From Minisyncoccia bacterium (lineage in GTDB: Bacteria; Patescibacteriota; Minisyncoccia; 2-02-FULL-40-12; IGHO2-01-FULL-4-A), in contig JBEKBN010000006.1 in assembly GCA_050015375.1 (NCBI GenBank), positions 454 through 64,453 on the forward strand: DNA of 64,000 bases, in the 5' to 3' direction. Position 1 is the stretch's first letter, and every line of letters begins with the position of its first letter. Below are positions 8,261 to 61,278 of this stretch, piece by piece. Below the pieces are notes generated by a model, which did no database searches, was not told the DNA's origin, and was given only the letters and a program-made list of their open reading frames with translations. The translations under genes and the position numbers were made by a program.

Positions 8261-9015
8261 AGACATTAGTAGCAAACTGGAAAATGAATCCCCAAAAATT
8301 GGCTGAAGCCGAGGAACTTTTTGAATACACCATCGCCGAATCGGCCAAATATCCGAACGTCAAAACGATAATTTGTCCGCCGTTCGTCTTTATTGAGGAA
8401 TTGTCCAAATTTCTACAAACTACAAACTACAAACTACAAACTAGCATCGGTTCCCAAAATATTTTTTGGGAATCCAAAGGAGCATATACCGGTGAGATTT
8501 CCACCGAGATGCTGAAAAATTTCGGCGTTAGCCATGTTTTGGTCGGCCATTCCGACCGGCGATATGTCATCGGCGAAACGGACGAGGAAATTAATAAAAA
8601 AATAAAAGCCGCGCTTTTGACCGATATAACCCCGGTGCTTCTAGTTGGCGAGAGAGAAGGCGAGAACCGCGAAGAAATTTTGAGGAAACAATTATCCGCT
8701 GACCTGGCCGGCGTTTCGGCGCCCCATTTGGGGAAGATCCTTTTTGCCTACGAACCGGTCTGGGCAATAAGCACAAATCCGAATGCAAAACCCGATACGC
8801 CCGAAAACACTTTGAAGGCGATCACATTTATAAATAATCTTCTTGCTATCAGCTATAAACTACCAGCCATAAGCTGTCTCTATGGCGGTTCGGTCAATGA
8901 AAAAAATATCGTTGATTTTCTCAAACATCCGGAAATCTCCGGCGCCGTCGTCGGCGGAGCCAGTTTGCGAAAAGAAGAATTTGGAAAAATGTTAAACTTA
9001 GTTTCAACAATTTAA
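8257..9015 (+). CDS. tpiA: triosephosphate isomerase
   Basis: ANWKMNP...VGHSDRRYVIGETDEEI...GGAS motifs. Overlaps the dedA stop (ATGA). Contains an in-frame heptamer-repeat insertion. Confidence 0.9.
   Translation: MKTLVANWKMNPQKLAEAEELFEYTIAESAKYPNVKTIICPPFVFIEELSKFLQTTNYKLQTSIGSQNIFWESKGAYTGEISTEMLKNFGVSHVLVGHSDRRYVIGETDEEINKKIKAALLTDITPVLLVGEREGENREEILRKQLSADLAGVSAPHLGKILFAYEPVWAISTNPNAKPDTPENTLKAITFINNLLAISYKLPAISCLYGGSVNEKNIVDFLKHPEISGAVVGGASLRKEEFGKMLNLVSTI
8413..8447. repeat. (CTACAAA)x4 heptamer tract inside tpiA, in frame, encoding LQTTNYKLQT
   Basis: Four perfect CTACAAA units plus a degenerate fifth (CTAGCAT). They map to a loop that is shorter in B. subtilis TPI. Confidence 0.7.
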
Positions 9016-12311: not shown

Positions 12312-12875
12312 ATGTCTTGGCAAATCTGTAAGCCGAATTCTGTTCCCCCACTTTTTGAGTTGCCCCAAAAGTGGGGGAGGCGATCATTTATCTGGTCCCT
12401 CGGTTACCCTCGGGATCTAGCGTCTCTTCCCCCACTTTTTAAGTTGCCCTAAAAGTGGGGGACACGGACTTGCACCGGGCAGGGTTTAGCGCGCATCCAT
12501 GTCGCCATGGAGCGGTCCCGTTCGGGGCCTTTTCACCCGTGATCCGCTTGCGCGGACTCGGAATAGTTTCTGTGCCACTTTCCCTGAATTTTGATAAATA
12601 ACTTTTGTCTTAAGAACAAAAACTATCCATCTTATATTCGGTGGCCATTAGCCACTGCCCTGCTTACGCAATCACCAACTGCTAATCTCTAATCTCAAAT
12701 AAAACCATTGGCGATCTTAGTTAACAATTAATGATTGCGTAAGCGGTGTTCGGACTTTCCTCCCTAAAACATTTTGCTTTCGCAAAATGTTCGGGCGATC
12801 AATTCGCAAAGCGAATTGATTTAGCCCCAAATCCAATAAGAATTCGTAGAGTAATCACCCGATTTACCAGGACTT
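12312..12875 (-). ncRNA. rnpB: RNase P RNA (bacterial type A-like) with an extended helix and twin hairpin insertions
   Basis: Reverse complement carries GGGAGGAAAGUCCGAAC (P4 5'), CAGGGCAG, AGUGGCACAGAAAC, CGCGCAAGCGGAUCACGGGUGAAAAGG, CUAAACCCUGCCCGGUGCAAG and ACAGAAUUCGGCUUACAG (J/P4 3'). These align with E. coli M1 RNA. The 5' and 3' ends are approximate. Confidence 0.8.
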
Positions 12876-17579: not shown

Positions 17580-19174
17580 CAGTCGGTTATTATTTTGTCG
17601 CCTTCCCGAACACCGCTAAGGATCTCCACTTTGCCATCGGAACCGTAAAGGCCGGTCTGGATCTGGACTTGAGTTGAGTGGACGCCGTCCGCCGAAAGCA
17701 ATTGGACATATTTATTCCCATTTTCACGGATGATCGTTCTTTGGGGCAAAAACAAAACATTTTGGCGGTTGTCGTTCGAGATATCAAGATTGGCGGTCAT
17801 GCCGGGTTTGATCCGGTCGTCGTTTTGGCTGAGAGTGAAAATAGTTTTGTATGTCGGCACGCCCTCGATAACCGATTCTGAAGGATAGATCTGAGAAACG
17901 ACAGCGTTCCAAGTCACATCCGGACCGTAGGCGTCGAGGGTAACCGTTGCCGGGTCGCCGACTTTGATCTTTGAAACATCAGCTTCTGGAACATTGGATT
18001 CGATCTGGTATTTGTTCATGCCGATGACAGAAACAACCGTGGCCTCGGGAGCAACAATCTCGCCGACCTGGAGATCGAAAGTAGCAATAGTGCCGGCAAT
18101 GGGCGAGCGCAAAGTATTCTTGTCGAGCTGGCTTTGGATCTGAGCCTGACTGGCTTGGGCCTGTGTCAAAGCCGCTTTGGCAATGTCGATGTCATATTGG
18201 GTCGGCGGAGCGATCTTCAAAGCCAGTTGCGACTCCAAGCTGGCGACATTATTTTGAGCGGTGATGATGGCTTGGCCTTGATCGGTAACAGCGGTGATTT
18301 GGGCTAGGACACCGGCTTTGGCCGAAACAATGACCGCTTTGTCAGCATCGGTTGCCGTGATGCCGTTTAAGCCAGTGTAGATATCATCGAGCGCGGTTTG
18401 GGTCAGGACCAAAACATTTTTTACATCCTTGATAAGCTGATTGCCATCCACCAGTGACGGATTAGTTTCATAACCGGAAATTTCAGCCACTAGCCCGCTT
18501 TGCAATACCAAGAATGCCGATGAGTTGTAGTTTCCCAAATTAGGTTTGTCATAAATAGCGAACAGAGCGTCGGCTTTATCGCCAATGATCTTTTGAAATT
18601 GGTCAAAATCAATGTTGGGATATTTTTGGGCGGAGTCGGAAACGGAAACCATTGCATTTATTGCCGTGTTCAAAGCTGTTTTTGCCACTGCCAGCGAGTC
18701 CTTGGTCAAGGTGTCGTTAAGAATGTTTTTAGCGCTGTCCAAACTTGTCTGCAAAACACTGACATCTTCCGGCCGCGGACCCTGGAGAAGCTGATCGTAT
18801 TTGGCCTGTGCCGACTGGACATTGGCCGTGGCGCCAAGAAGCTGGGCTTCCAGGTCGGACGAATCCAATTTGGCGAGAACTTGGCCGGCAGTGACTTTGT
18901 CGCCGACGGCGCCGGAGATGCTGACGACCTTTCCGCTGTGGTCGAACGACAAATTGACCTGGTCATTGGCGGAAATTTGGCCGGTCTCAGAAATAACCTG
19001 CTCAATATTTCCCTTTTGAACAGCGACGGTTTTCAGCGTTGACGGTTTAGCCCGGAACAAAAAAGCTCCGCCGGCCAAGACCAAAACGATAATTCCCGCC
19101 CAAACATATGTCCGGGGGCGTTTGAAAAAGGTCGGCTTCATAATCGGTTGATTTTCATCCATAATGTTATCCAT
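17579..19174 (-). CDS. HlyD-family periplasmic adaptor subunit (MacA-like)
   Basis: N-terminal TM, a long coiled-coil, and beta-barrel/MP domains. I placed the start at MDNIMDENQ (19174) rather than the track's 19207, which reads into the IR element. Confidence 0.75.
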   Translation of the reverse strand: MDNIMDENQPIMKPTFFKRPRTYVWAGIIVLVLAGGAFLFRAKPSTLKTVAVQKGNIEQVISETGQISANDQVNLSFDHSGKVVSISGAVGDKVTAGQVLAKLDSSDLEAQLLGATANVQSAQAKYDQLLQGPRPEDVSVLQTSLDSAKNILNDTLTKDSLAVAKTALNTAINAMVSVSDSAQKYPNIDFDQFQKIIGDKADALFAIYDKPNLGNYNSSAFLVLQSGLVAEISGYETNPSLVDGNQLIKDVKNVLVLTQTALDDIYTGLNGITATDADKAVIVSAKAGVLAQITAVTDQGQAIITAQNNVASLESQLALKIAPPTQYDIDIAKAALTQAQASQAQIQSQLDKNTLRSPIAGTIATFDLQVGEIVAPEATVVSVIGMNKYQIESNVPEADVSKIKVGDPATVTLDAYGPDVTWNAVVSQIYPSESVIEGVPTYKTIFTLSQNDDRIKPGMTANLDISNDNRQNVLFLPQRTIIRENGNKYVQLLSADGVHSTQVQIQTGLYGSDGKVEILSGVREGDKIITD

Positions 19175-19286
19175 CCCGTTAGAAGTCACTGTTGCACAGT
19201 TAATCACATAAGTTATAAAACCTGCTACAGAATGACTTTATAATTGATTCCAATTCGCGAACCCGTTAGGGTGACTTCTAACGGGA
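19174..19286. repeat. 113-bp inverted-repeat element (TCCCGTTAGAAGTCAC ... GTGACTTCTAACGGGA) abutting the macA start codon; copy A of three
   Basis: 16-bp perfect terminal IRs. The element ends exactly at the ATG of the downstream minus-strand gene. Related copies are at 52085-52197 and 58608-58685. Confidence 0.75.
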
Positions 19287-19334
19287 TCCATGATTTTGTC
19301 GTAATTCAGTAATTTTATTATAAATTATAAGAAA

Positions 19335-19891: not shown

Positions 19892-20983
19892 GTGAAAATC
19901 GCATTGGTTCAGGACTATCTTGTCGAATACGGCGGGGCCGAGAGGGTTCTTCAGGCGCTTTGCGAAATTTTTCCGGAGGCGCCGATCTACACTTTACTTT
20001 ATGATGAGAAAGCCAGCGGCCGGGTTTTTCGCGACCGCGAGATCCACACCTCCTTTATCCAAAAGATTCCTTTCGCCCGGCGACACCACCGATTATTCGC
20101 GGCTTTGATGCCTTTGGCCATCGAACAATTCGATCTGTCGGAATTTGATTTTGTTTTATCGAACTCGGCTTCCTTCGGCAAGGGCGTCATCACCAAACCC
20201 AAAACCACCCACATCAACTACTGCATGACCCCGACAAGATTTCTTTGGGACGACAGTCATCGTTTTATTGATGAGTTCAAATTGCCTTGGCTGATCAGAA
20301 AAATGACACCAGCCGTCATCGCTTATCTTCGGATCTGGGACAAAGAGGCCGCCTTGCGGGTGGACGAATTCGTCGCTATTTCCAACCATGTAAAAACCCG
20401 GATCGCCAAATATTATCAGCGCGACGCGAAAGTCATCACTCCGCCGATAGATGTCAGCAAATATCATATAAGCCCCGAAGTTGACGAATATTTTTTAATG
20501 GTCGGCCGCTTAGTTGCCTACAAACGCTTTGACCTGGCGATCCAGGTTTTCAACGCCATCGGCAAACCATTGAAGATCGTCGGCGATGGGCCGGAGCGAT
20601 ATCGGCTTGAAAAAATGGCCAAAAAAAATATCGAATTTCTCGGTCTTGTCTCCGATGATAAATTGCCCGGACTCTACAGCCGCGCTCAAGCGGTGATTTT
20701 CCCCCAGGAAGAGGATTTCGGTTTGGTGCCGCTGGAAGCGATGGCTTCGGGCCGGCCGGTCATCGCGTATCGCGCCGGCGGGGCGCTGGAAACGGTCATT
20801 GATGGCCGGACTGGAATATTTTTTGACGAGCAAACGGAAATCTCGATGGCTTTGGCCATCAGCAGATATTACGAAACCAAATTCAATCCCAACGTTATCC
20901 GGGCCCACGCTTTGGATTTCGACAAATCCATCTTCAAGGAGAAAATTCTCAAATTGCTTGCCCCCACACTCAATCGCGATTGA
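19892..20983 (+). CDS. family 4 (group 1) glycosyltransferase
   Basis: GTG start. GT-B fold with C-terminal motif FPQEEDFGLVPLEAMASGRPVIAYRAGG. The stop codon is supplied by a palindromic element. Confidence 0.85.
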   Translation: MKIALVQDYLVEYGGAERVLQALCEIFPEAPIYTLLYDEKASGRVFRDREIHTSFIQKIPFARRHHRLFAALMPLAIEQFDLSEFDFVLSNSASFGKGVITKPKTTHINYCMTPTRFLWDDSHRFIDEFKLPWLIRKMTPAVIAYLRIWDKEAALRVDEFVAISNHVKTRIAKYYQRDAKVITPPIDVSKYHISPEVDEYFLMVGRLVAYKRFDLAIQVFNAIGKPLKIVGDGPERYRLEKMAKKNIEFLGLVSDDKLPGLYSRAQAVIFPQEEDFGLVPLEAMASGRPVIAYRAGGALETVIDGRTGIFFDEQTEISMALAISRYYETKFNPNVIRAHALDFDKSIFKEKILKLLAPTLNRD

Positions 20984-20992
20984 GTGTGGGGG
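20961..20992. repeat. palindromic element CCCCCACACTCA-ATCGCGAT-TGAGTGTGGGGG (copy 1 of 5) at the GT4 gene 3' end
   Basis: Perfect 12-bp arms. The TGA of the right arm serves as the gene's stop codon. Family copies are at 25056, 55616, 58240 and 60021. Confidence 0.75.
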
Positions 20993-23630: not shown

Positions 23631-25460
23631 ATGCAAAACATCCGCAATTTTTGTATAATTGCTCACATAGACCATGGCAAAAGCACCTTAGCCGACCGGC
23701 TTTTAGAATTGACGGGCACAATTGAAAAGCGCAAAATGCACGAACAATTTCTGGACCAGATGGAATTGGAGCGTGAAAGAGGGATTACCATAAAACTCCA
23801 ACCCGTCCGCATGCAATACGGCGAATATATTTTGAATTTAATAGATACGCCGGGCCATGTGGATTTCACCTACGAAGTTTCTCGTTCGCTGGCGGCGGTG
23901 GAGGGTGCGATTTTACTTGTGGATGCCGCCAAAGGCGTTCAAGCCCAGACACTGGCCAATTTGCATTTGGCGCAAAGACAGAATTTGGTCATTATTCCGG
24001 TCATCAACAAAATTGATCTACCCAATGCCAGAGTGGCCGAAGCCGAAGAAGAAATTTCCAATTTGCTTGCCGTTGAACCGGACGAAATTATCAAGATTTC
24101 CGCCAAGACCGGTGAAGGCGTGGAGAAAGTTCTTGAAGCGGTTGTCGAAAAAATTCCCCCGCCATCTACTCACTACTCACTACCAACTACCAACTATCCT
24201 CGCGCCCTGATTTTTGATTCCGCTTTTGACGCTTACAAAGGCGTTGTCGCTTATGTCAGGATTTTTGACGGCAACTTCCGGGCCGGAGACAAAATTAAAC
24301 TTTTCGCTTCCAAAGCCGAAGCCGAGATAATCGAAGTTGGTCAGTTTAAACCCGCCTTGAGCAAAACCGATTCTATCGGCGAAGGTGAGATCGGCTATAT
24401 CGCCACCGGTTTGAAAAATCCCGGCGATGTCCGCGTTGGTGATACGGTTTTCTCTACAAACTATAAACCACAAACTACAAACTTTTCACCCCTTCCCGGC
24501 TACAAAGAACCGATGCCGGTGGTTTTCGCCAGTTTTTTTCCGGAAAAAGGGGAAGATTATGATCTGCTGAAAGACGCGCTGGGAAAACTGAAATTGACCG
24601 ATGCCTCGCTGACTTATGAACCGGAATCTTCACCAGCCCTCGGCCGGGGTTTTCGCCTTGGCTTTCTGGGTATGCTCCACACCGAGATCATCAGTGAGCG
24701 GTTGCGCCGGGAATTCAAATTGTCGCTGATAATTTCCTCGCCGTCGGTGGAATATCACATTTTGAAAAAGAACGGCCAAGAAATTCCCATCCGTTCGGCA
24801 TCAGAGATGCCCAATCCGAGTTATATTGATAAAATTTTCGAACCGACGGTTGTGCTGGAATTGTTGAGCCCATCTGAATATCTCGGTTCATTGATGAAAC
24901 TTCTTTCCGAAATGCGAAGCTCTTATCTAGCCACTGATTATTTGACCAAGGAAATCGTGATTTTAAAATACAAAGTCCCGCTGACTGAAATTGTGACCGA
25001 TTTTTATGACAAACTGAAAAGCGTCAGTTCCGGTTACGCTTCGATGAGTTATTCACCCCCACACTCATTAGATGAGTGTGGGGGCAAGCAGGATGGCTAT
25101 GAGGAATCTGATCTGGTTCGGCTGGATATTTTGGTGGCCGGGGATTTGGTTGAACCGTTTTCGAGAATGGTTCCGAGATCGCGCGTTCATGACGAAGGCA
25201 AGAGAATTGTCGAGAAGTTGAAGAAAATAATTCCGCGGCAATGGTTCGCGGTGGCGATCCAAGCGGCCATCGGCGGGAAAATAATCGCTCGGGAAACCAT
25301 CAGCGCTTTGCGAAAAGATGTTACCGGTTATCTCTACGGCGGGGATATTACCCGCAAGAAAAAATTATTGGAGAAGCAAAAGAGGGGGAAGGCGAGGATG
25401 AAAGAGGAAGGCAAGGTGAATATTCCGCAGAATGTGTTTCTGGAGATGCTGAAAAAGTAG
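23631..25460 (+). CDS. lepA: elongation factor 4 (LepA)
   Basis: IRNFCIIAHIDHGKSTLADRLL...DTPGHVDF and a C-terminus matching E. coli LepA. Contains three in-frame repeat insertions. Confidence 0.92.
   Translation: MQNIRNFCIIAHIDHGKSTLADRLLELTGTIEKRKMHEQFLDQMELERERGITIKLQPVRMQYGEYILNLIDTPGHVDFTYEVSRSLAAVEGAILLVDAAKGVQAQTLANLHLAQRQNLVIIPVINKIDLPNARVAEAEEEISNLLAVEPDEIIKISAKTGEGVEKVLEAVVEKIPPPSTHYSLPTTNYPRALIFDSAFDAYKGVVAYVRIFDGNFRAGDKIKLFASKAEAEIIEVGQFKPALSKTDSIGEGEIGYIATGLKNPGDVRVGDTVFSTNYKPQTTNFSPLPGYKEPMPVVFASFFPEKGEDYDLLKDALGKLKLTDASLTYEPESSPALGRGFRLGFLGMLHTEIISERLRREFKLSLIISSPSVEYHILKKNGQEIPIRSASEMPNPSYIDKIFEPTVVLELLSPSEYLGSLMKLLSEMRSSYLATDYLTKEIVILKYKVPLTEIVTDFYDKLKSVSSGYASMSYSPPHSLDECGGKQDGYEESDLVRLDILVAGDLVEPFSRMVPRSRVHDEGKRIVEKLKKIIPRQWFAVAIQAAIGGKIIARETISALRKDVTGYLYGGDITRKKKLLEKQKRGKARMKEEGKVNIPQNVFLEMLKK
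24166..24200. repeat. heptamer tract (CTACTCA x2, CTACCAA x2, CTATCCT) in frame inside lepA, encoding STHYSLPTTNYP
   Basis: Five 7-nt units with a CTA anchor. Absent from E. coli LepA at the equivalent PAPQGDPDAPLQ position. Confidence 0.65.
24454..24488. repeat. heptamer tract (CTACAAA/CTATAAA/CCACAAA/CTACAAA) in frame inside lepA, encoding TNYKPQTTNF
   Basis: Same unit as the tpiA tract. About 7 extra residues relative to E. coli LepA. Confidence 0.65.
25056..25084. repeat. palindromic element CCCCCACACTCA-TTAGA-TGAGTGTGGGGG (copy 2) inserted in frame in lepA, encoding SPPHSLDECGG
   Basis: Perfect 12-bp arms with a 5-nt loop. Adds about 11 residues relative to E. coli LepA between GYAS and SDLV. 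Confidence 0.75.
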
Positions 25461-25645
25461 CGAGCCCCTCACTTCCCGACCTGGGCTCACCGGATTACTT
25501 TCCGGGGACTTCGCATCGCCCAGCGAGCGATTTGCTCATCCGGTTGTCGGTTGCCGTCGCTGACTTGATCACAAGTCAGACCGTGCCGACGGCACCGACA
25601 ACGGCCCCTGAAAGCAATCCAGTTCGCAGAAAGTGAGGGGCTCGC
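25460..25645. repeat. GC-rich 186-bp element bounded by a perfect 14-bp inverted repeat (GCGAGCCCCTCACT / AGTGAGGGGCTCGC); candidate structured RNA or MITE
   Basis: Starts at the lepA stop codon. The interior has nested hairpins (CTGACTTG-ATCA-CAAGTCAG, GTGCCGACGGCAC). GC content is far above the local average. Confidence 0.5.
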
Positions 25646-25696
25646 TTCTGCTTTACATTCCGCCAATTCTTGCAGGTATTGCATAAATATGTGATT

Positions 25697-25725
25697 CGTG
25701 GTAGTATATGGAAATCGCAATGAAA
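25697..25725 (+). promoter_or_regulatory. sigma-70-like promoter (TTGCAT-17 nt-TGgTAGTAT)
   Basis: Consensus-like -35, 17-nt spacer and extended -10, located 64 nt upstream of the 25789 ORF. Confidence 0.5.
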
Positions 25726-25788
25726 GCATTCGGTTTTGAGCAATAAATGAGCCGAAAAGCTCTTTGAAAAAAGGAAGGAGAAACTCAG

Positions 25789-26322
25789 ATGGTAACATTT
25801 ATTGTCTTGGCCGTAGTTGGTGTTATGGTAGGCGTTGCTTCTCAAAAGGGCTGTGGCCGAGGAGAAAAGGTTTTATTTGGGTTTGTGGGGCTGGTGTTTG
25901 GTTTGCTACTGGCAGTGGTTACCGCTCTTAAGATTGGGGCGTTATTGCCAAATTATCACGAGACCCAAGTCATCGAAAAAACTGAGCTTGTGGCGTTAAA
26001 TAACGGAACAACTATTGAGGGAAGATTTTTTCTCGGGTCCGGCCAAATCGATTCTCAGCCTGCTTACTTTTTCTACTACAAGGTTGCTAATGGTGGAATA
26101 AAACTTGGAACCTTGTCAGCAGAAGGTGTCACAATATTTGAGGAAAAGCGAAGTGATGCCTATATGGAAAAATCGAGCGAAGAGGATTATCCTAAAATAA
26201 CCGGAATTTGGGGATATCTCACATTTCCTGGCGTAACACGTAAGTGGGAGTGCGTAAACTTTCATATCCCAGAAGGCAGTATCCAGAGAAGTTTCGACTT
26301 GGATTTGAAGAACATGAGGTGA
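25789..26322 (+). CDS. hypothetical membrane protein
   Basis: SD AAGGAAGGAG. Two N-terminal TM helices followed by a soluble domain. No known motif. Confidence 0.5.
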   Translation: MVTFIVLAVVGVMVGVASQKGCGRGEKVLFGFVGLVFGLLLAVVTALKIGALLPNYHETQVIEKTELVALNNGTTIEGRFFLGSGQIDSQPAYFFYYKVANGGIKLGTLSAEGVTIFEEKRSDAYMEKSSEEDYPKITGIWGYLTFPGVTRKWECVNFHIPEGSIQRSFDLDLKNMR

Positions 26323-31473: not shown

Positions 31474-31517
31474 ATAACATGTAGATATTGACCATATGGT
31501 CAATATCTACATGTTAT
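31474..31517. promoter_or_regulatory. 44-bp perfect palindrome (ATAACATGTAGATATTGACCAT|ATGGTCAATATCTACATGTTAT), putative operator
   Basis: Perfect dyad 30 bp upstream of the PaaX-like gene, in a divergent region shared with arsR. A near-copy is at 32111-32138. Confidence 0.6.
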
Positions 31518-31546
31518 TGTTTTATAGTTTCTGTTATTATGTATTC

Positions 31547-32113
31547 ATGAAGGCGATAAGAAGAGGAACCCTAGCTTTTAAAATTTTAAAAGGCATTGGT
31601 CTAACGGGTTTGTTTTTAATAAGCATGTCGAACCCGCGTTTTGGGGTTCAGTTATTGACGGGATTTAAAGAATATAACAAAAGGGAGAAACAAAAATTCA
31701 GAGAATCGTTATATTATTTGAAAAAAAGAGGATTGGTAAAAATCATAGAAAACAGTAGCGGCGGCTTTACGGCCAAATTGTCAAAGACCGGAGAAAAAAT
31801 GTTGGAATCTATCGACATTGATTGTCTTGAATTGAAAAATAAGGAATTTGATGGAAAATGGCGCGTGGTTATCTTTGATGTTCCGGTCAGATTGAATATT
31901 AAAAGACACGCTTTTACGGAACGACTGAAAACTCTGGGTTTTATCATGGTTCAAAGAAGTGTATGGATTTGTCCGTTTAGGTGCAGAAAAGAACTGGCGA
32001 TGTTAACCCAATTTTACGAAATTGAGAAATACGTCACATATTTAGAAACATCTTTTGTGGATAACGAAGAAGCGTGGAAAAAAGAGTTTTCACTAATCAA
32101 ACTGGTGGCTTAG
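31547..32113 (+). CDS. PaaX-like regulator: N-terminal winged helix plus a C-terminal Cas2-fold domain
   Basis: SLYYLKKRGLVKIIE (wHTH), then GKWRVVIFDVPVRLNIKRHAFTERLKTLGFIMVQRSVWICPF, which resembles the Cas2/PaaX_C motif (YDV..KRR...L...G.R.Q.SV). Confidence 0.5.
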   Translation: MKAIRRGTLAFKILKGIGLTGLFLISMSNPRFGVQLLTGFKEYNKREKQKFRESLYYLKKRGLVKIIENSSGGFTAKLSKTGEKMLESIDIDCLELKNKEFDGKWRVVIFDVPVRLNIKRHAFTERLKTLGFIMVQRSVWICPFRCRKELAMLTQFYEIEKYVTYLETSFVDNEEAWKKEFSLIKLVA

Positions 32114-32138
32114 ATATTCACCATATGGTCAATATCTA
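32111..32138. promoter_or_regulatory. imperfect 28-bp palindrome (TAGATATTCACCAT|ATGGTCAATATCTA), second copy of the operator-like dyad
   Basis: One central mismatch relative to the 31474 dyad. Overlaps the stop codon of the PaaX-like gene. Confidence 0.5.
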
Positions 32139-32217
32139 CACTTGGGGGTGTTGATATTGTGAGCGGATGACATAACCATGTTTCTATAAAAAGAAACACG
32201 GTTTTATTTTCCACAAG

Positions 32218-46264: not shown

Positions 46265-46392
46265 TCGGCGGGATTTTTTCTTTTCTTTTTTTCCAATTTT
46301 GATATAATAAAATCAATGCAAGAACTGCGAGAAATGATCGAAGAAATGCAGTTGAAAGTCCCTGTTCACCCCTCACCCAGAAAGCTAAAATT

Positions 46393-46647
46393 ATGTTCTG
46401 CGTTTATTTAATTAAAAGTTTAAAAGATGGCTCGATCTATATCGGATACACGCCTAATTTAAAAAGGAGGTTAGCAGAACATAATTCAAATCAAAGTGTG
46501 TATACAAAAAATAAAGGACCATACGAACCGATTTATTGCGAGTTTTACAAATCGAAACAGGATGCAATAAATCGAGAACAAAATTTGAAAAGATTTGCGC
46601 AAGCATATTCGCAGTTGAAAAAAAGAATTACTTTTTCTCTGGAGTAG
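46393..46647 (+). CDS. GIY-YIG nuclease-domain protein (UPF0213/Slx1-like)
   Basis: VYLIKSLKDGSIYIGYTPNLKRRLAEHN...REQNLKR is the GIY-YIG motif set. Confidence 0.7.
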   Translation: MFCVYLIKSLKDGSIYIGYTPNLKRRLAEHNSNQSVYTKNKGPYEPIYCEFYKSKQDAINREQNLKRFAQAYSQLKKRITFSLE

Positions 46648-46683
46648 CTTTCTGGGTGAGGGGCAAGTCCGGGAGTTTAACAT

Positions 46684-47758: not shown

Positions 47759-47780
47759 TTTGTAGATTGGAACGCCAAAA

Positions 47781-47816
47781 CTACTTACTACTCACTACTT
47801 ACTACAAACTAACTTG
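47781..47816. repeat. heptamer tract (CTACTTA/CTACTCA/CTACTTA/CTACAAA/CTAACTT) abutting the ftsE TTG start
   Basis: Five 7-nt CTA-anchored units ending CTAACTTG, the same junction as at the galT TTG start. Confidence 0.6.
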
Positions 47817-51569: not shown

Positions 51570-52085
51570 TTAAGAATCCTTCGAGATCAAGCTGGCCGTG
51601 AAATATCCGACGATGATCCCGATAAGCGCGCCGCCGAGAATATCAGAAGGATAATGGACGCCGGCCATGACTCTGGCGACGCCCATCACGATACTGCCAA
51701 CAAAGAACGCCGTTCCCCAGCGTTTGTTGTAATAAAATATTATCATTGAAAGCGCGAAGAAGAAACTGGCGTGGCCGGAGGGAAAAGAATTGCCGCTCTC
51801 GGAGACGAGCTGGTGAACCTGATAAATAGCGAATGGCCGGGGATGATGGTAAAAATATCGGATGACCGTGGTCAAAATCCCGCGGGAAATGAAAACCGAA
51901 ATAATTCCGGCCCAAAAAACTTTCCAGCGAGTCGCCAAGAAAGGTTTCAACCATAAAAAGACCAAAAATAAAATTCCCAAAAGATACGCCCAGTAGATGG
52001 CGAAAAAAACCGTGAGCCAACTCAAAAAACCCGGCGAGCCGACGAGATCGTTCAAAGCAAAAAATATTTTTGTATCCAGATTCAT
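51570..52085 (-). CDS. PAP2-family phosphatase (undecaprenyl-diphosphatase-like)
   Basis: PAP2 motifs PSGHASFFFAL and GVHYPSDILGGALIG. I placed the start at MNLDTKIFF (52085), not the track's 52118, which reads into the IR element. Confidence 0.75.
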   Translation of the reverse strand: MNLDTKIFFALNDLVGSPGFLSWLTVFFAIYWAYLLGILFLVFLWLKPFLATRWKVFWAGIISVFISRGILTTVIRYFYHHPRPFAIYQVHQLVSESGNSFPSGHASFFFALSMIIFYYNKRWGTAFFVGSIVMGVARVMAGVHYPSDILGGALIGIIVGYFTASLISKDS

Positions 52086-52197
52086 CCCGTTAGAAGTCAC
52101 TGTTTCACAGCTAATCACCTAATTTATACAACTAACGACAGCTGACTTAATTAAAGTATCTATGGTTGCAAACCCGCTAGGGTGACTTCTAACGGGA
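52085..52197. repeat. 113-bp inverted-repeat element, copy B (TCCCGTTAGAAGTCAC ... GTGACTTCTAACGGGA), abutting the PAP2 start codon
   Basis: Same length and terminal 16-bp IRs as copy A. About 40 bp at each end are conserved and the centre is divergent. Confidence 0.75.
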
Positions 52198-52207
52198 TTC
52201 ATTTTAT

Positions 52208-55256: not shown

Positions 55257-56543
55257 ATGACCGTTTCTGATATAATTAAACAAATGGAGGAAAAAGAAAA
55301 TGAATTGAAATTCCCCAACGGGTTTTTGTGGGGGACGGCCACGTCAAGCTATCAGATAGAAGGTGGAATAAATAATTGCGACTGGGCCCAAGCGAATCGC
55401 GGTCCCTCGACAAGTTCAGGACATCAGATTCCTGATGCTGGGCGCGCTTGCGATAGTTACAATAAATACGAGGAGGATTTTGATATTGCCAAATCGCTTG
55501 GCCAGAACGCCCACCGTTTCTCTATAGAATGGGCGCGGATCGAGCCGGAAGAGGGAAAATTCGACGAGAAAGAAATCGAGCATTATAAAAAAGTGCTGGA
55601 CGCCTTGCGAACTCGCCCCCACACTCAAGATTTGAGTGTGGGGGGAACGGGATTGGAACCATTCGTGACCCTTTGGCATTTCACGCTTCCGGTTTGGTTC
55701 GCGAAAATGGGCGGTTTCGAAAATCCGAAATCACCGGAAATATTTTCCCGATATTGCGAATTTGTCGTTGGCAAAATGGGGGATAGAGTTCACCCTGTTA
55801 AATCCGGCGAAGCCGGTGCCGCGGAGCGGCAATTTAACAGGGTAAAATTCTGGGTAACTATAAACGAACCGATGGTTTATGCCTCGAATGGTTACCGAAA
55901 AGGTCAATGGCCGCCGTTTGAAAAAAATATTTTCAGGTTCATGAAGGTTATCAAAAATCTAATCATGTCGCACAATCTAGCATATGACAAAATCAAGAAC
56001 ATTGATCCTTCGGCTCAGATCGGCATCGCTAAAAATAATATAAATTTTGAGGCAAATTGGAACCCAATCAATCGCCTCTTGTCAAGCTTTCTGAATTTTT
56101 TCTGGAATCGCAGATTTTTGAATAAAATTTCACAGGATTTCATCGGTTTGAATTATTATTTCCACAAAAAGTTCGGGGATAGGGCGAAGTATCCGAAATC
56201 CGACATGGGTTGGGATATTTATCCGAAAGGAATTTATAATTTGCTGATGGAACTGAAAAAATATGGTAAACCGGTTTACATCACCGAAAACGGATTGGCG
56301 GACAAAGAAGACAAACAACGCGCCGATTTCATCCGTGAACATTTGAAATGGGTTTCGAGAGCGATCCGGGATGGCTCTGACTGCCGCGGATATTTTTATT
56401 GGTCGCTTCTGGATAATTTTGAGTGGGCGGAGGGTTACAAACAAAAATTCGGTTTGGTGGAAATTAATTTTGAAACAATGGAAAGAAAGATCAGGAATTC
56501 AGCGTGGGAATTTGCAAAAATTTGTAAAAATAACGAAATATGA
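55257..56543 (+). CDS. glycoside hydrolase family 1 (beta-glucosidase-like) carrying two in-frame palindromic insertions
   Basis: FLWGTATSSYQIEGG, TINEP (acid/base) and ITENGLA (nucleophile). Carries insertions RTRPHTQDLSVGG and HPVKSGEAGAAERQFNRV relative to canonical GH1. Confidence 0.88.
   Translation: MTVSDIIKQMEEKENELKFPNGFLWGTATSSYQIEGGINNCDWAQANRGPSTSSGHQIPDAGRACDSYNKYEEDFDIAKSLGQNAHRFSIEWARIEPEEGKFDEKEIEHYKKVLDALRTRPHTQDLSVGGTGLEPFVTLWHFTLPVWFAKMGGFENPKSPEIFSRYCEFVVGKMGDRVHPVKSGEAGAAERQFNRVKFWVTINEPMVYASNGYRKGQWPPFEKNIFRFMKVIKNLIMSHNLAYDKIKNIDPSAQIGIAKNNINFEANWNPINRLLSSFLNFFWNRRFLNKISQDFIGLNYYFHKKFGDRAKYPKSDMGWDIYPKGIYNLLMELKKYGKPVYITENGLADKEDKQRADFIREHLKWVSRAIRDGSDCRGYFYWSLLDNFEWAEGYKQKFGLVEINFETMERKIRNSAWEFAKICKNNEI
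55616..55644. repeat. palindromic element CCCCCACACTCA-AGATT-TGAGTGTGGGGG (copy 3), in frame in GH1
   Basis: Perfect 12-bp arms. Encodes RPHTQDLSVGG, inserted before the conserved GxEPFVTLxHxxLP block. Confidence 0.75.
55793..55842. repeat. second, distinct GC-rich palindromic insertion (CCCTGTTAAAT-28 nt-ATTTAACAGGG), in frame in GH1
   Basis: 11-bp perfect arms. The loop itself holds two hairpins (CCGGC-GAA-GCCGG and GCCGC-GGA-GCGGC). Encodes about 16 extra residues between GDRV and KFWVTINEP. Confidence 0.65.
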
Positions 56544-57427: not shown

Positions 57428-58509
57428 AGAAGCACAAAAAATATTTTTCAATTCCCATTATCCTTTTCTTGATCCTTTTGGTTTTAACCTTGGCTTGGAA
57501 TTTGCTTTCCATCAGGCCGGTTCCCGAAAAAGTAAATTACGGCGTTTCGTTCAGCGTTTTTCATTCCAACGAACTCAATCTGGATTGGAAAAAAACATAT
57601 TTGGCGATCTTAGACGATCTTAAGGTCAGGAACTTGCGGCTTACCGCTCATTGGCCGCTGACCGAGCCGGCCGACGGCAAATACGATTTCTCAGAATTGG
57701 ATTTTCAGATAAACGAAGCCGATAAACGCGGCGCGACCTATATTCTGGCCGTCGGCCGGCGCCTGCCCGGCTGGCCGGAATGCCATGTGCCGGATTGGGT
57801 TATGAATCAAGAATCACAAATCACGAATCAAGGTGAAAAAACTGATTTTGAGAACCAAAAGTTATTGGAATATATTCAGACGACCGTTGAGCGTTACAAA
57901 AATTCCCCCGGTCTGAAATATTGGCAAGTCGAGAATGAACCGTTCCTAGGATTTTTCGGCCGTTCGAGCTGCCAATTGACCGACGAGAATTTTTTCAAAC
58001 AGGAGATCGCTCTTGTCCATAAACTCGATCCGACCCATCCGGTTCTGGCGACCGACAGCGGCGAGTTCGGCTATTGGTATCAGGCCTACCGCGACGGTGA
58101 TGTTTTCGGCACCTCCTTGTATCTGTATGTTTGGTGGCGGGCGCTTGGCATCGGCCCCTTGCGTTATCCCATCGGGCCGTCGTTTTTCCGAGTGAAGCAA
58201 AATGTGGTTGATTTTATCGGTTGTGTCTTGGGCGATTCACCCTCACACTCAATTTTTGAGTGTGAGGGCAAGCCGACAATTCTCATTGAACTGGAAGCCG
58301 AGCCCTGGCTTTTAACACCGATCGTTGACGCGCCGATGGCGACTCTCCTTGACCGGATGGGGATTGATAAATTCGAAACCATGATCCAAACCGCCAAAGA
58401 AGCCGGTTTTGGCGACCAATATCTCTGGGGCGCCGAGTGGTGGTATTGGATGGAACAAAATGGCCATCCGGAATTTTGGCAGGCGGCGAAGCAACTTTTT
58501 AACCAATAA
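57424..58509 (+). CDS. glycoside hydrolase, clan GH-A (GH5/GH113-like)
   Basis: Signal/TM N-terminus, then YWQVENEPF (acid/base NEP) and LIELEAEPW (nucleophile Glu). The family is not resolved. Confidence 0.55.
   Translation: MKKHKKYFSIPIILFLILLVLTLAWNLLSIRPVPEKVNYGVSFSVFHSNELNLDWKKTYLAILDDLKVRNLRLTAHWPLTEPADGKYDFSELDFQINEADKRGATYILAVGRRLPGWPECHVPDWVMNQESQITNQGEKTDFENQKLLEYIQTTVERYKNSPGLKYWQVENEPFLGFFGRSSCQLTDENFFKQEIALVHKLDPTHPVLATDSGEFGYWYQAYRDGDVFGTSLYLYVWWRALGIGPLRYPIGPSFFRVKQNVVDFIGCVLGDSPSHSIFECEGKPTILIELEAEPWLLTPIVDAPMATLLDRMGIDKFETMIQTAKEAGFGDQYLWGAEWWYWMEQNGHPEFWQAAKQLFNQ
58240..58268. repeat. palindromic element variant CCCTCACACTCA-ATTTT-TGAGTGTGAGGG (copy 4), in frame in the GH-A hydrolase gene
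   Basis: Both arms carry a compensatory change (C to T paired with G to A), so pairing is preserved. Encodes SPSHSIFECEGKP. Confidence 0.75.
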
Positions 58510-58607: not shown

Positions 58608-58685
58608 TCCCGTTAGAGAGCGTGATTTAATTCAACATTTTAGACCGGTTGAATTACACGATTTTAACGGGACTCTCTAACGGGA
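58608..58685. repeat. 78-bp inverted-repeat element, copy C (TCCCGTTAGAGAG ... CTCTCTAACGGGA), abutting the htrA ATG
   Basis: 13-bp terminal IRs related to copies A and B, with an internal TTTTAACGGG half-site. Ends ...TCTAACGGG ATG. Confidence 0.7.
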
Positions 58686-59956
58686 TGAATAAAAAAGAAA
58701 TTTCCAGGTTTTTCAGAAGACATTTTATGCTGACCACGATCGTGGCTTGTCTGATCGTCTCGGCACTGGCCGGCGGAATCGTCGGCTATTACAGCGTCGA
58801 GGGCGCGCTTGGCCAGAAACCGGCTTTGCCGAATTTTGTCAAGCAACTGATCAATCCTCAAGCCGGCAATTCAACACCCGCTTTTACCAACGAACAATCT
58901 CAGGTCATCAGCGTCGTCAAAAGCGCCTCACCGGCGGTGGTCAGTATCGTGGCTTCAAAAGATCTGACCACGGTTGAGCAGAACGGCTACAATCCGTTCC
59001 AGGATTTTTGCAGCGATCCGTTCTTCAAACAATTTTTCGGCGACCAGTGCGATTCGGCAACGCCGGCGCCGAAATCCACGACCCAGAAACAACAAGTCGC
59101 GGCCGGCACCGGATTTTTGATAACTTCCGACGGTTTGATCCTGACCAACAAGCATGTCGTTGACATTTCGGGCGCCGATTTCACGGCCATCACCAGCGAC
59201 GGCAAAAGTTATCCGGCCAAGATCTTGGCCACCGATCCGGTTTTGGATGTGGCCTTGGTCAAAATTTCCGGGACTAATTTCCCAACCTTGCCTTTGGCCG
59301 ATTCGAGCCAAATTCAGATCGGTCAGACGGTCATCGCCATCGGCAACGCTTTGGGCCAATTCTCGAACACGGTTTCAAAAGGCGTAATTTCCGGCCTTTC
59401 CCGTTCGATTACCGCCGGAGACAATGCCGGTTCTTCGGAAACGCTAAACTCCGTTATCCAAACCGATGCCGCCATCAACCCGGGTAATTCCGGCGGACCG
59501 CTTTTGGATCTGAGCGGCAATGTCATTGGCATCAACACCGCCATTGCCCAAGGCGCCCAAAATATCGGTTTTGCCATTCCTATCAATCAAGCCAAAAAGG
59601 ATATCGGCCAGGTTAAAACCAGTGGCAAGATCAGCACCGCATACCTTGGCATTCGCTACATCGCCATTGACGACACGGTCAAACAGGAAAATAATCTGAC
59701 GGTGAATTACGGCGCGCTGGTAGTCAGAGGCGACACTCAGGATCAGGTGGCGGTCATGCCCGGCTCGCCGGCCGATATCGCCGGCATCAAAGAGAACGAC
59801 ATTATTCTCGAGGTTAACGGAACCAAAATAGACCAGAACAACGACCTGGCGACATTGCTTCAAAAATACAATGTCGGCCAAACGATCCAGCTGAAAGTTT
59901 TAAGCCAAGGAAAAGAAAAAACCGTTTCGGTGAAACTGGTGGAGAGACCTCAATGA
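58685..59956 (+). CDS. htrA: HtrA/DegP-family serine protease with a PDZ domain
   Basis: Trypsin-like core (TNKHVV...D...GNSGGPLLDLSGNVIGINTA) plus a C-terminal PDZ. I placed the start at the ATG at 58685, not the track's 58649, which is inside the IR element. Confidence 0.85.
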   Translation: MNKKEISRFFRRHFMLTTIVACLIVSALAGGIVGYYSVEGALGQKPALPNFVKQLINPQAGNSTPAFTNEQSQVISVVKSASPAVVSIVASKDLTTVEQNGYNPFQDFCSDPFFKQFFGDQCDSATPAPKSTTQKQQVAAGTGFLITSDGLILTNKHVVDISGADFTAITSDGKSYPAKILATDPVLDVALVKISGTNFPTLPLADSSQIQIGQTVIAIGNALGQFSNTVSKGVISGLSRSITAGDNAGSSETLNSVIQTDAAINPGNSGGPLLDLSGNVIGINTAIAQGAQNIGFAIPINQAKKDIGQVKTSGKISTAYLGIRYIAIDDTVKQENNLTVNYGALVVRGDTQDQVAVMPGSPADIAGIKENDIILEVNGTKIDQNNDLATLLQKYNVGQTIQLKVLSQGKEKTVSVKLVERPQ

Positions 59957-59963
59957 TCCATCG

Positions 59964-60001
59964 AAGAGCGGCCCGCTCGCGAGCGAGCGGGCCGCTCTTC
60001 A
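59964..60001 (+). terminator. GC-rich 17-bp perfect stem-loop after htrA (no U-tract)
   Basis: GAAGAGCGGCCCGCTCG-CGAG-CGAGCGGGCCGCTCTTC. Probably a transcript-end or processing structure. Confidence 0.4.
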
Positions 60002-60020: not shown

Positions 60021-60049
60021 CCCCCACACTCATGCATGAGAACGGGGGC
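60021..60049. repeat. degenerate intergenic copy (copy 5) of the CCCCCACACTCA palindromic element
   Basis: CCCCCACACTCATGCATGAGAACGGGGG has a left arm identical to the family and a decayed right arm. Confidence 0.5.
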
Positions 60050-60527: not shown

Positions 60528-61278
60528 AAGTGAGGAAAATCAGTTGTGCCGCCTCGGTTGCCGCCTCTAGGTTTAGAGGCAAAAAACGGGGGCTGGCCGT
60601 CTTCCCGGCCCGGCCGAGAAGATGGCCAGCCGACCCGCCGGCAGACCTTATCCACAGCCATTTGCTTGTGGACGGCGCGCGCGGGTTCTACAATGTATTC
60701 ATAACCGTTTAATTATCCACACTTTCGGGCTTGTATGATGTGTGGCTGATAGCATAAAATAAGGTAACGGTTAGTTTCGATGACGATGGTTGACGCAGGG
60801 AAAGGGTTTTGCTAGTATTGAGTGCGAGCCGCAAACAGACGGAGTTCATTGTTTGTTGACGGATATAAACAAGGAAAATCAATGCTTTTAAGAGATCGGA
60901 AAACTGCTGTCAGAAAGTAACCGTTTTGGTTGTTTTTTGCGTTATGCGGATCAATGTCAGTGCGAACTCTAATTACTAATGGCTATTCTTCGCTCCGACA
61001 TTGGTCTACATGGAATGGACATTGAAAACCGAATATATTGTTGCTCTTGATTGAAATTCTATGTAAGTTTTCTATTGATATTGTTGAGTCTTAAATCGGT
61101 CGAGCAAACGTGTTGGCGATAAGGGTCCGTGGTCGAACCCGGATCCGAAATAGCCAGACATGGTAAATCAAGACTCTAGTTTAAGACAAGGAATTATTTC
61201 TCTATTGTTCCCGGGTCAATTGACAAGGGAGCGATAAAGATATGACCGAATAAAAAAGGTCAAAAAATAAAATTAATT

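Follow-up and report, generated by a model that had tools for sequence, protein, structure and literature searches.

The DNA analyzed here is a stretch of 64,000 nucleotides from a Minisyncoccia bacterium (contig JBEKBN010000006.1, positions 454 to 64,453), in the following called the window, and the element in question is a GC-rich palindrome that directly follows the lepA gene. The segment 25460-25645 is a real feature and no chance palindrome. It is one copy of a previously uncatalogued family of structured hairpin elements in Paceibacteria/Yanofskybacteria-like bacteria of the Candidate Phyla Radiation (CPR), and the relatives of the LepA protein of the window likewise belong to the Yanofskybacteria/Paceibacteria. 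Five further members were found in metagenome contigs, which makes six loci in all with the window included; the window sequence itself is also present on two other assemblies (L001 and L002). The family represents a defined motif with support from covariation and without an entry in Rfam. Its unusual and testable trait is that it clasps the stop codon of the upstream gene and is gained or lost between near-identical genomes. We read it, with a confidence that is about evenly balanced, as a low-copy, non-autonomous mobile palindromic element of the ERIC, RPE or Correia kind, which would be co-transcribed as a hairpin in the 3'-untranslated region (3'-UTR).

The upstream open reading frame (ORF) matches the Pfam families GTP_EFTU (3e-60) and LepA_C (5.6e-42), and a 100% identical protein from a metagenome-assembled genome (MAG) carries the NCBI name 'translation elongation factor 4 [Minisyncoccia bacterium]'. 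The original prediction had described a GC-rich segment of 186 bp with perfect 14-bp terminal inverted repeats right after this gene, and all of this proved correct. The 186 bp are bracketed by the sequence GCGAGCCCCTCACT (25460-25473) and, at 25632-25645, by its exact reverse complement, and the G+C content of the element is 61.8% compared with 46.3% for the whole window and 42-49% for the flanking 200-nt windows. It also exceeds that of the RNase P RNA (48%) and the tRNAs (52-58%) of the window. If one mismatch is allowed in the inverted-repeat scan, the arms extend to 25456-25474 and 25631-25649 (19 nt, 95% complementary). Since these arms reach 25456, the stem covers the A and the G of the stop codon TAG, so that the basal stem begins inside the stop codon of lepA. 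With up to two mismatches allowed, the 14-mer does not occur a further time in the window, where 0.24 chance matches are expected.

The folds of both strands are far more stable than those of dinucleotide shuffles, with a minimum free energy (MFE) of -100.5 kcal/mol on the + strand (z = -9.5) and of -115.3 kcal/mol on the - strand (z = -10.6), and 0/200 shuffles were as stable in either case. The overall fold of the window copy is a single long rod rather than a series of independent hairpins. Among the internal hairpins that had been proposed, CTGACTTG-ATCA-CAAGTCAG is indeed the apical hairpin, but 'GGTTGTCGGTTGCCGTC' and 'GTGCCGACGGCAC' are not separate hairpins: the former is the 5' strand of the long arm and the latter its 3' strand plus a conserved bulge. 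The gene and the parts of the element are arranged as follows.

23631..25460, + strand: lepA (elongation factor 4); its stop codon TAG at 25458-25460 lies within the basal stem of the element
25456..25474, + strand: outer stem, 5' arm, perfect over 25460-25473 (GCGAGCCCCTCACT); overlaps the stop codon
25475..25497, + strand: outer shell, 5' side, imperfect pairing with 25615-25630 (folds, alignment)
25498..25507, + strand: P1, 5' strand (CTTTCCGGGG); the conserved core begins here
25508..25539, + strand: conserved one-sided junction, ACTTC, then the P1a hairpin, then TCAT; near-invariant across the family
25513-25535, + strand: P1a hairpin, GCA-TCGC-CCA-GCGA-GCGATT-TGC
25540..25559, + strand: long arm, 5' strand, pairs with 25587-25604 over 18 bp with two single-base bulges
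25560..25579, + strand: apical hairpin CTGACTTG-ATCA-CAAGTCAG, the variable apex of the family
25580..25586, + strand: conserved 3'-side bulge ACCGTGC (family consensus AACCRUGC)
25587..25604, + strand: long arm, 3' strand (folds)
25605..25614, + strand: P1, 3' strand (CCCCTGAAAG) (alignment, covariation)
25615..25630, + strand: outer shell, 3' side (folds)
25631..25649, + strand: outer stem, 3' arm, perfect over 25632-25645 (AGTGAGGGGCTCGC)

For the search for relatives, 21 bases of the block that the window has in common with the contig L004 were taken as a pattern, which was scanned over the JGI metagenome contigs (241 million records). It gave 61 matches, of which 57 are chance matches in high-GC coding DNA and four are real (L080, L082, L091 and L078), L080 being the L004 contig. 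A covariance model was built from four members, and a further one, L098 (4513-4655), was found afterwards with this model (43.8 bits, E = 8e-8). The L004 copy comes from Hainich groundwater and lies directly 3' of the stop codon of a lepA gene whose product is 76% identical to the LepA of the window. The L091 copy follows lepA as well, and that of L082 follows a uvrB-like gene (the C-terminus was judged to be UvrB by eye, without a Pfam scan), with rpsT downstream. The L098 copy differs in composition (48% G+C) and lies between a gene for a bPH-domain protein and divIC. In L078, only the 5' half is present, truncated by the contig end and 55 nt from the start of the divergent rodA; contig ends fall inside the element in two of the fetched contigs (L002 and L078). 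The family occurs beside at least four different genes. Searches of IMG/VR, of the GenBank phages and of the PLSDB plasmids gave no homologs, and the seven pattern matches in IMG/VR are chance matches in high-GC contigs.

Read on the strand of the upstream gene, all members share one architecture. The helix P1 (CYUUYYGGGG / CCCCWGAARG) is followed by an unpaired junction of about 30 nt, which consists of ACYUC, the small hairpin P1a with its CCA loop (GCN-UCGC-CCA-GCGA-..-NGC) and UCAU (consensus ACYUC-GCNUCGCCCAGCGA..GC-UCAU). This junction is one-sided, with 0 nt opposite in every member, and has few variable positions. Then come a long arm with bulges of its own and a variable apex with a length between 4 and about 50 nt, the bulge AACCRUGC (7-8 nt) on the 3' side just under the apical helix, and the return strands. 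All copies have long complementary ends, the terminal inverted repeats of the window copy being 14-19 nt long. The outer shell of the window copy is unique to it, that of L004 is different, and L082 and L091 lack a shell; the covariance model matches the window at 25491-25621.

The folding z-scores range from -8 to -13 across every copy, and the helices are maintained by compensatory changes. In an unfitted MAFFT alignment of four members, 88.6% of the cells pair and 11 pairs are changed on both sides, compared with 5.7 +/- 1.4 in shuffled alignments (0/500 reach this value) and 0-3 in slid controls. With L098 added, 29/46 pairs are compensatory (shuffled 10.1 +/- 2.3, slid controls 3-8), in an alignment that is fitted to the model. 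Two examples from the window copy are the pair A25-T43 of the junction, which is C-G in the other members, and the long-arm helix, which differs in sequence from the other members and retains the pairing. We ran the Rfam covariance scan suggested along with the original prediction, using Rfam 15 at gathering and at permissive (E<=10) thresholds on the window and nine related loci. At gathering thresholds, the whole window gave only RNase P RNA and three tRNAs, and the permissive scan of 25300-25850 gave a best E of 0.77, with nothing overlapping the element. The elements of L078, L082 and L091, and also those of L095 and L100 discussed below, gave nothing. The view of the segment as unassigned and structured is supported by the lack of an Rfam match at E<=10 and by the compensatory changes across five related loci.

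The position of the element relative to the upstream gene is also constant. In 5/5 complete copies the stop codon of the co-oriented upstream ORF is enclosed in the basal stem, and the junction is located on the gene-proximal arm, in the sense strand.

Window copy: upstream gene lepA, stop TAG
L004 copy: upstream gene lepA, stop TAG
L091 copy: upstream gene lepA, stop TAG
L082 copy: upstream gene uvrB, stop TAG
L098 copy: upstream gene for the bPH-domain protein, stop TAA

Within the element, columns 3-5 of the alignment hold the stop codon in each of L082, L091 and L098. TAG accounts for 11/49 stops in the window. Since the lepA genes of this clade often end with TAG even without an element, only uvrB and the bPH-domain gene weigh independently for the stop-codon position. 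The L098 copy is located inside an operon, as it separates two genes whose ends share a few bases in L100 and L101. The upstream protein receives its five final residues (LRASP) and its stop from the outer stem of this copy, the tails of the relatives being ...QPPNV* or ...PPPPQY*. Since the outer stem replaces these tails between genes that otherwise overlap, the L098 copy is a DNA insertion, and the element is tolerated within an operon. Given the constant sense orientation and the one copy inside an operon, the simplest assumption is that the + strand would be transcribed together with the upstream gene.

The occupation of orthologous sites differs between close relatives. The lepA site is empty in L003, the P0002 contig, L098, L099, L101 and L102. 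In the nearest LepA relative (83% identity, P0002 contig), just 101 nt separate lepA from the gene of a HAD hydrolase, and in L003 (81% LepA identity) the downstream gap is 38 nt. In the window, the element and this HAD hydrolase gene are separated by an ORF for a predicted membrane protein of 177 amino acids without Pfam match (25789-26322). Because the contig of the closest relative runs straight from lepA to the HAD gene, both the element and this ORF are extra DNA here. The bPH/divIC site is filled in L098 and empty in L100 and L101, and the rodA site is filled in L078 and empty in L110 and L111, whose homology with L078 stops at ...CAGATTT. The LepA of L091 shares 94-98% identity over its C-terminus with the LepA proteins of L100, L098 and L101, and these near relatives differ: the element follows lepA in L091 and lies 1.2 kb further on in L098, L101 shows none in the vicinity, and L100 contains a rod-like element of another kind. 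The cores of L078 and L091, which come from the same sample, differ at only 2/59 bases (read by hand) and lie at different loci, in one genome or in two. Moreover, the core without the apex is 79-94% identical between copies, compared with 68-72% for the last 399 nt of lepA and 45-51% for the third codon positions.

These observations bear on the earlier suggestion of a MITE, a miniature transposable element with inverted repeats. Support for it comes from the terminal inverted repeats, the filled and empty sites at three loci and a core that is more conserved than lepA; a large number of copies, a convincing direct target-site duplication and a partner transposase were not seen. The proposed hunt for further copies, carried out on the 64-kb window, found none by BLASTN, a profile hidden Markov model (HMM) or two covariance models. 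The same methods detected no homology of the element to three GC-rich patches that had been listed as similar (55793, 59964 and 60590). They are unrelated hairpins:

59963-60000: perfect GC hairpin of 18 bp just 3' of the ORF 58649-59956, without a U-tract; unrelated to the element
60580-60630: GC-rich hairpin in an intergenic stretch; unrelated to the element
55790-55845: inverted repeat of 11 bp inside the ORF 55257-56543; unrelated to the element

Several findings weigh against a mobile, co-transcribed palindrome. Only a single copy is present in the window (64 kb), likewise in the L004 contig (48.6 kb), and six loci are known overall. A TA duplication finds only partial support: L004 and L098 alone have TA on both flanks, with a left TA that belongs to the stop codon, and on the right the window copy is flanked by TT and the copies of L082 and L091 by CA. 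No transposase or RAYT was detected among the 25 window ORFs scanned, and the only nuclease among them, a GIY-YIG ORF, has a flanking repeat that shares only 8-10 nt with the element. Unpaired motifs that are kept and stems that covary, even in the AT-rich L098 copy, are expected of a functional RNA selected by the host. An empty lepA site is also not equal to an element-free genome, as L098 is empty at lepA and filled 1.2 kb away. As for the strand, a manual count on the folds gave about 7 G-U pairs on the + strand versus about 6-7 oppositions of A and C, which on the - strand would form G-U pairs; an automated count gave 6 against 11, resting on partly misaligned arms.

If the element is mobile nonetheless, it may land at, or carry along, a TA(G/A) stop codon, which would be a 'safe' site in a gene-dense genome. 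The transcript of the upstream gene would then carry the element as a very stable double-stranded stem in its 3'-UTR or between cistrons. By analogy with ERIC and Correia elements, this stem would probably protect the 3' end, serve as a substrate of RNase III, or both, and the conserved unpaired module would be the recognition site of a protein that moves or processes the element. A bolder version, which we regard as unlikely, is a mobile structured RNA/DNA class that colonizes stop codons and regenerates the stop from its own first bases, with a three-way junction that is either catalytic (a self-cleaving or self-processing ribozyme) or the handle of a hairpin-specific recombinase. This would be a previously undescribed 'safe-harbour' strategy of insertion in the ultra-compact CPR genomes. 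The CPR or Patescibacteria make up a large share of bacterial diversity. To our knowledge, almost nothing is known about their non-coding RNAs and small mobile DNA, and our literature search for CPR non-coding RNAs or MITEs found nothing relevant. A mobile element would mean, together with the in-frame 35-nt palindromes described below, that the reduced genomes of these episymbionts harbor selfish palindromes of the RPE type, by which gene ends and even housekeeping proteins such as LepA are reshaped; a host RNA or ribozyme would be a new RNA class.

The closest known systems include the ERIC or IRU sequences of enterobacteria, which are imperfect palindromes of 127 bp. Both are non-coding imperfect palindromes (about 130-190 bp in the present family) at transcribed intergenic or 3'-end positions, both vary in presence at orthologous sites, and both are better conserved than their surroundings. 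By this analogy, the element would be expected to work on the host mRNA as an RNA hairpin. In Yersinia, ERIC located at the 3' ends of genes affects the amount of transcript by way of RNase E (PMC10969869). In contrast to ERIC, the element occurs apparently in about one to two copies per genome instead of tens to hundreds, shows no sequence similarity to ERIC, resides in a CPR host, and has a one-sided three-way-junction module and a stop-overlapping basal stem that ERIC lacks. Insertions of RPEs are in frame, transcripts of the Correia stem formed by the terminal inverted repeats are cleaved by RNase III, and the Coxiella QMITE2 is found mostly in 3' UTRs (PMC10969869). RPE and Correia elements resemble the present family as palindromic inserts in reduced genomes that are able to supply coding sequence, here with the outer stem of L098, and the long perfect stems may be natural substrates of RNase III, as for Correia. 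However, RPEs occur in many copies inside ORFs and the present family at ORF ends, and Correia/NEMIS elements have terminal inverted repeats of 26 bp, a TA duplication and more than 100 copies.

REPs, which plausibly function as RNA elements, are for the most part located downstream of ORFs and in some cases within genes; the GTAG-tagged REP/REPIN type is a palindrome of 20-40 bp with an unpaired GTAG tag at one end, a high copy number and a RAYT in the genome (PMC3733652). The element is likewise a GC-rich palindrome downstream of an ORF, and the copies of the window and L004 are preceded by GTAG (AAG-TAG). However, this GTAG consists of a Lys codon and a stop and is base-paired, and it is replaced by ATAG or ATAA in L082, L091 and L098. 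An assignment to the GTAG-tagged REP/REPINs was rejected for this reason as well as for the length of 130-190 bp, the low copy number and the lack of a RAYT in the window. The attC sites of integrons are located immediately after a co-oriented ORF and often overlap its stop codon; their structure but not their sequence is conserved, they have conserved extrahelical bases and a variable terminal structure, and they are recognized as a folded single strand. The element shares with them the co-oriented position behind an ORF, the overlap with the stop, the conserved structure and a variable terminal part. It differs from them by the absence of the RYYYAAC/GTTRRRY core sites, by which it was rejected as an attC, by being longer than attC (57-141 nt), by core housekeeping genes (lepA, uvrB) instead of cassettes upstream, and by the lack of any integrase seen.

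The conserved one-sided junction and the bulge imply a sequence-specific partner or activity, which leaves some probability for a 3'-UTR RNA selected by the host, and even for a new ribozyme. Such an RNA would be a structured + strand RNA that serves the host, either in the 3'-UTR, between cistrons or as a small RNA derived from the 3'-UTR by cleavage in the basal stem, with a junction that binds a protein or is catalytic, and it would occur about once per genome and have moved between gene ends. We consider this possible, though on balance improbable. The conservation of the unpaired motifs, the covarying helices and the compositional adaptation of L098 would fit well, as would the sense orientation with stop-codon overlap in all complete copies and the operon location in L098, which ensures transcription of the + strand if the operon is expressed. 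A single copy was seen per contig, with one exact-pattern match in the 48.6-kb contig of L004, and the sporadic spread over many contexts together with a conserved junction resembles that of the small self-cleaving ribozymes. On the other hand, the very close relatives L091, L098, L100 and L101 differ in the location of the element, near-identical cores occupy two loci in one sample (L078 and L091), and the identity of the core is far above that of the adjacent conserved gene. Furthermore, the unpaired regions of the + strand are C-rich, which is unusual for the loops of functional RNAs, no ribozyme or other RNA family of Rfam matches, and a hammerhead-like junction on the - strand fails at invariant positions. 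For the latter, CGGAUGA...GAAGU on the - strand was compared with the type III hammerhead (C3-U4-G5-A6-N7-G8-A9, G12-A13-A14 and H17 around a three-way junction); it has a G at position 4 and a G at position 17 (read by hand), L004 has GAGG for GAAG, and Rfam gives no hit. An HDV-like J4/2 (GGCGAAGU) was rejected by hand as well, since neither the invariant positions nor the topology agree and the 'GAA' is broken in L004.

That the element is instead an independent small-RNA gene on the - strand, convergent with lepA, appears quite improbable to us. The fold is slightly more stable on the - strand in five of five copies (- versus + strand, -115/-100, -139/-133, -74/-72, -88/-87 and -71/-61 kcal/mol), but since the z-scores are equal on both strands, this difference is compositional. 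Unpaired regions that are G/A-rich on the - strand (GGAUGAGC, GCGAAGU, GCAUGGU), as in many RNA motifs, would suit such a gene, and so would the C-A opposition of P1 (column 13/162, + strand) in L082 and L098, which would be G-U on the - strand, and the position in L078 upstream of and co-directional with rodA. However, a U-G pair of P2 that is conserved on the + strand in three members would become an A-C mismatch, and the U-run that follows the stem on the - strand in the window is merely antisense to Lys codons and is missing in L082, L091 and L098. A promoter search revealed no promoter-like site on either strand, the upstream flanks of the - strand share no motif, and in L098 the gene would be antisense within an operon.

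A reading without any sequence-specific function is that of an intrinsic or bidirectional terminator of excessive size, or of a palindrome grown by templated copying from arm to arm, and we rate this as very improbable. It would account for the location at a gene end and for the outer stems, which vary and reach into the flanking coding sequence in a way that quasi-palindrome correction could yield; the genome also has other GC-rich hairpins right after ORFs without U-tracts, for example 59963-60000. It is hard to reconcile with an unpaired module of 30 nt and a bulge of 7-8 nt that are conserved over four gene contexts and over hosts in which the third positions of lepA are saturated. An intrinsic terminator was rejected for want of a U-tract directly behind the GC-rich hairpin: the scan found none on the + strand, the window has only TTCTGCTTTAC past the stem, a U-tract after the stem is absent in L004, L082, L091 and L098, and the L098 copy lies between two co-transcribed genes of an operon.

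Least credible of all, and in our view barely worth entertaining, is the earlier proposal of a 6S-like or other housekeeping small RNA (6S, signal recognition particle (SRP) RNA, transfer-messenger RNA (tmRNA) or 5S) that Rfam misses in CPR bacteria. The length of about 130-190 nt and the rod with a closing stem resemble 6S or 4.5S RNA, and RNAs of CPR bacteria are often divergent; the RNase P RNA in the window measures 498 nt compared with a model of 367 positions. However, 6S RNA requires a large two-sided central bubble that mimics an open promoter, between a closing and a terminal stem, whereas the unpaired region of the element is one-sided in every member (about 30 nt versus 0 nt), and neither the 551-nt region nor the other members gave a match to 6S, SRP, tmRNA or 5S models at E<=10. 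Conserved synteny and universal presence are also lacking, as the nearest relatives have no element at the syntenic site, and the 21-base pattern has only four distinct matches in 241 million metagenome records. Bacterial SRP (4.5S) RNA was rejected because the apex, which is less conserved than any other part and has another length and sequence in each copy, lacks a GNRA/AGCAGCC-type motif of domain IV, in agreement with the earlier failure to match the segment to SRP RNA or tmRNA. For tmRNA and 5S, the architecture does not fit and no model hits were obtained.

Some further candidates were dismissed. A small ORF on the - strand (MSRARWARRSP...) or extension by stop readthrough was rejected, since a 2-nt indel of the window copy and the different frames of L004 abolish a common peptide although the nucleotides are conserved. 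Retron, bridge RNA, omega RNA and the accessory RNA of diversity-generating retroelements (DGR) find no support, as the neighboring ORFs scanned or called include no reverse transcriptase, recombinase, TnpB or IscB. The conserved unpaired segments show no consistent complementarity that would support a pseudoknot between them.

Other long rod-like elements are present 3' of lepA in related genomes (L095 3410-3640, L100 3297-3500 and L011 2825-2880, and also L005, L007 and L009), and Rfam gave no hit for them. The rods of L095, L100 and L011 begin with GCTCGCCC(C)TCAYC, similar to the outer stem of the window (GCGAGCCCCTCAC). We do not claim homology of the L100 and L095 rods to the present family, because the L100 score of about 22 bits is no better than that of the reverse strands of true members.

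The lepA gene itself contains a copy of a second, 35-nt palindromic repeat, CCCC(C/T)CACACTCA-N4-5-TGAGTGTG(G/A)GGG, of which the window has at least five copies, three of them inside ORFs (25053-25087, 55613-55647, 58237-58271, 20961-20992 and 60021-60048). The lepA copy encodes an in-frame insertion of 11 residues (in ...SPPHSLDECGGKQ...), which is absent from six aligned LepA homologs, and the ORF 19892-20983 has its last codons and its stop within another copy. This repeat family behaves like the RPEs of Rickettsia. Low-complexity repeats of the ACTACAAACT type also occur in ORFs, at 24165-24195 and 24453-24483 within lepA and at 8412-8442 and 47780-47810. Those in lepA coincide with lineage-specific insertions compared with the homologs (..STHYSLPTTN.., ..TNYKPQTTN..).

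The GIY-YIG nuclease ORF mentioned above (46393-46647, 84 aa, PF01541, 8.6e-17) lies exactly between perfect 19-nt inverted repeats (CCCCTCACCCAGAAAGCTA, 46369-46663). The unit is located between an apparent duplicate of the 5' end of prfB (MQELREMIEEMQLK... vs MTTLREELNSMQDK...) and prfB itself (from about 46685, with a CTTTGAC frameshift site), and it may represent a homing or mobile unit of small size. The sequence CCCCTCAC is common to its repeat and the outer stem of the element, and GCTTTCTGGG to the repeat and P1 of the family. In view of the 35-nt family within ORFs and of these GIY-YIG inverted repeats, palindromic insertions are a feature of this host genome.

The RNase P RNA (12313-12810, - strand, 498 nt compared with the 367-position model) contains tandem 40-nt hairpin units (CCCCCACTTTTT..AAAAGTGGGGG) at 12339-12378 and 12423-12462, apparently palindromic insertions in an RNA gene. 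A unit of about 120 bp with perfect 17-nt terminal inverted repeats (ATCCCGTTAGAAGTCAC) is present in two copies that are 84-91% identical (19169-19291 and 52080-52202), each at the 5' end of a minus-strand gene. Finally, near-identical perfect palindromes of 30 nt (TAGATATTGACCATATGGTCAATATCTACA) lie on either side of a gene for a PaaX-like regulator (31496-32113), at 31474-31517 and 32111-32140, and are probably operator sites.

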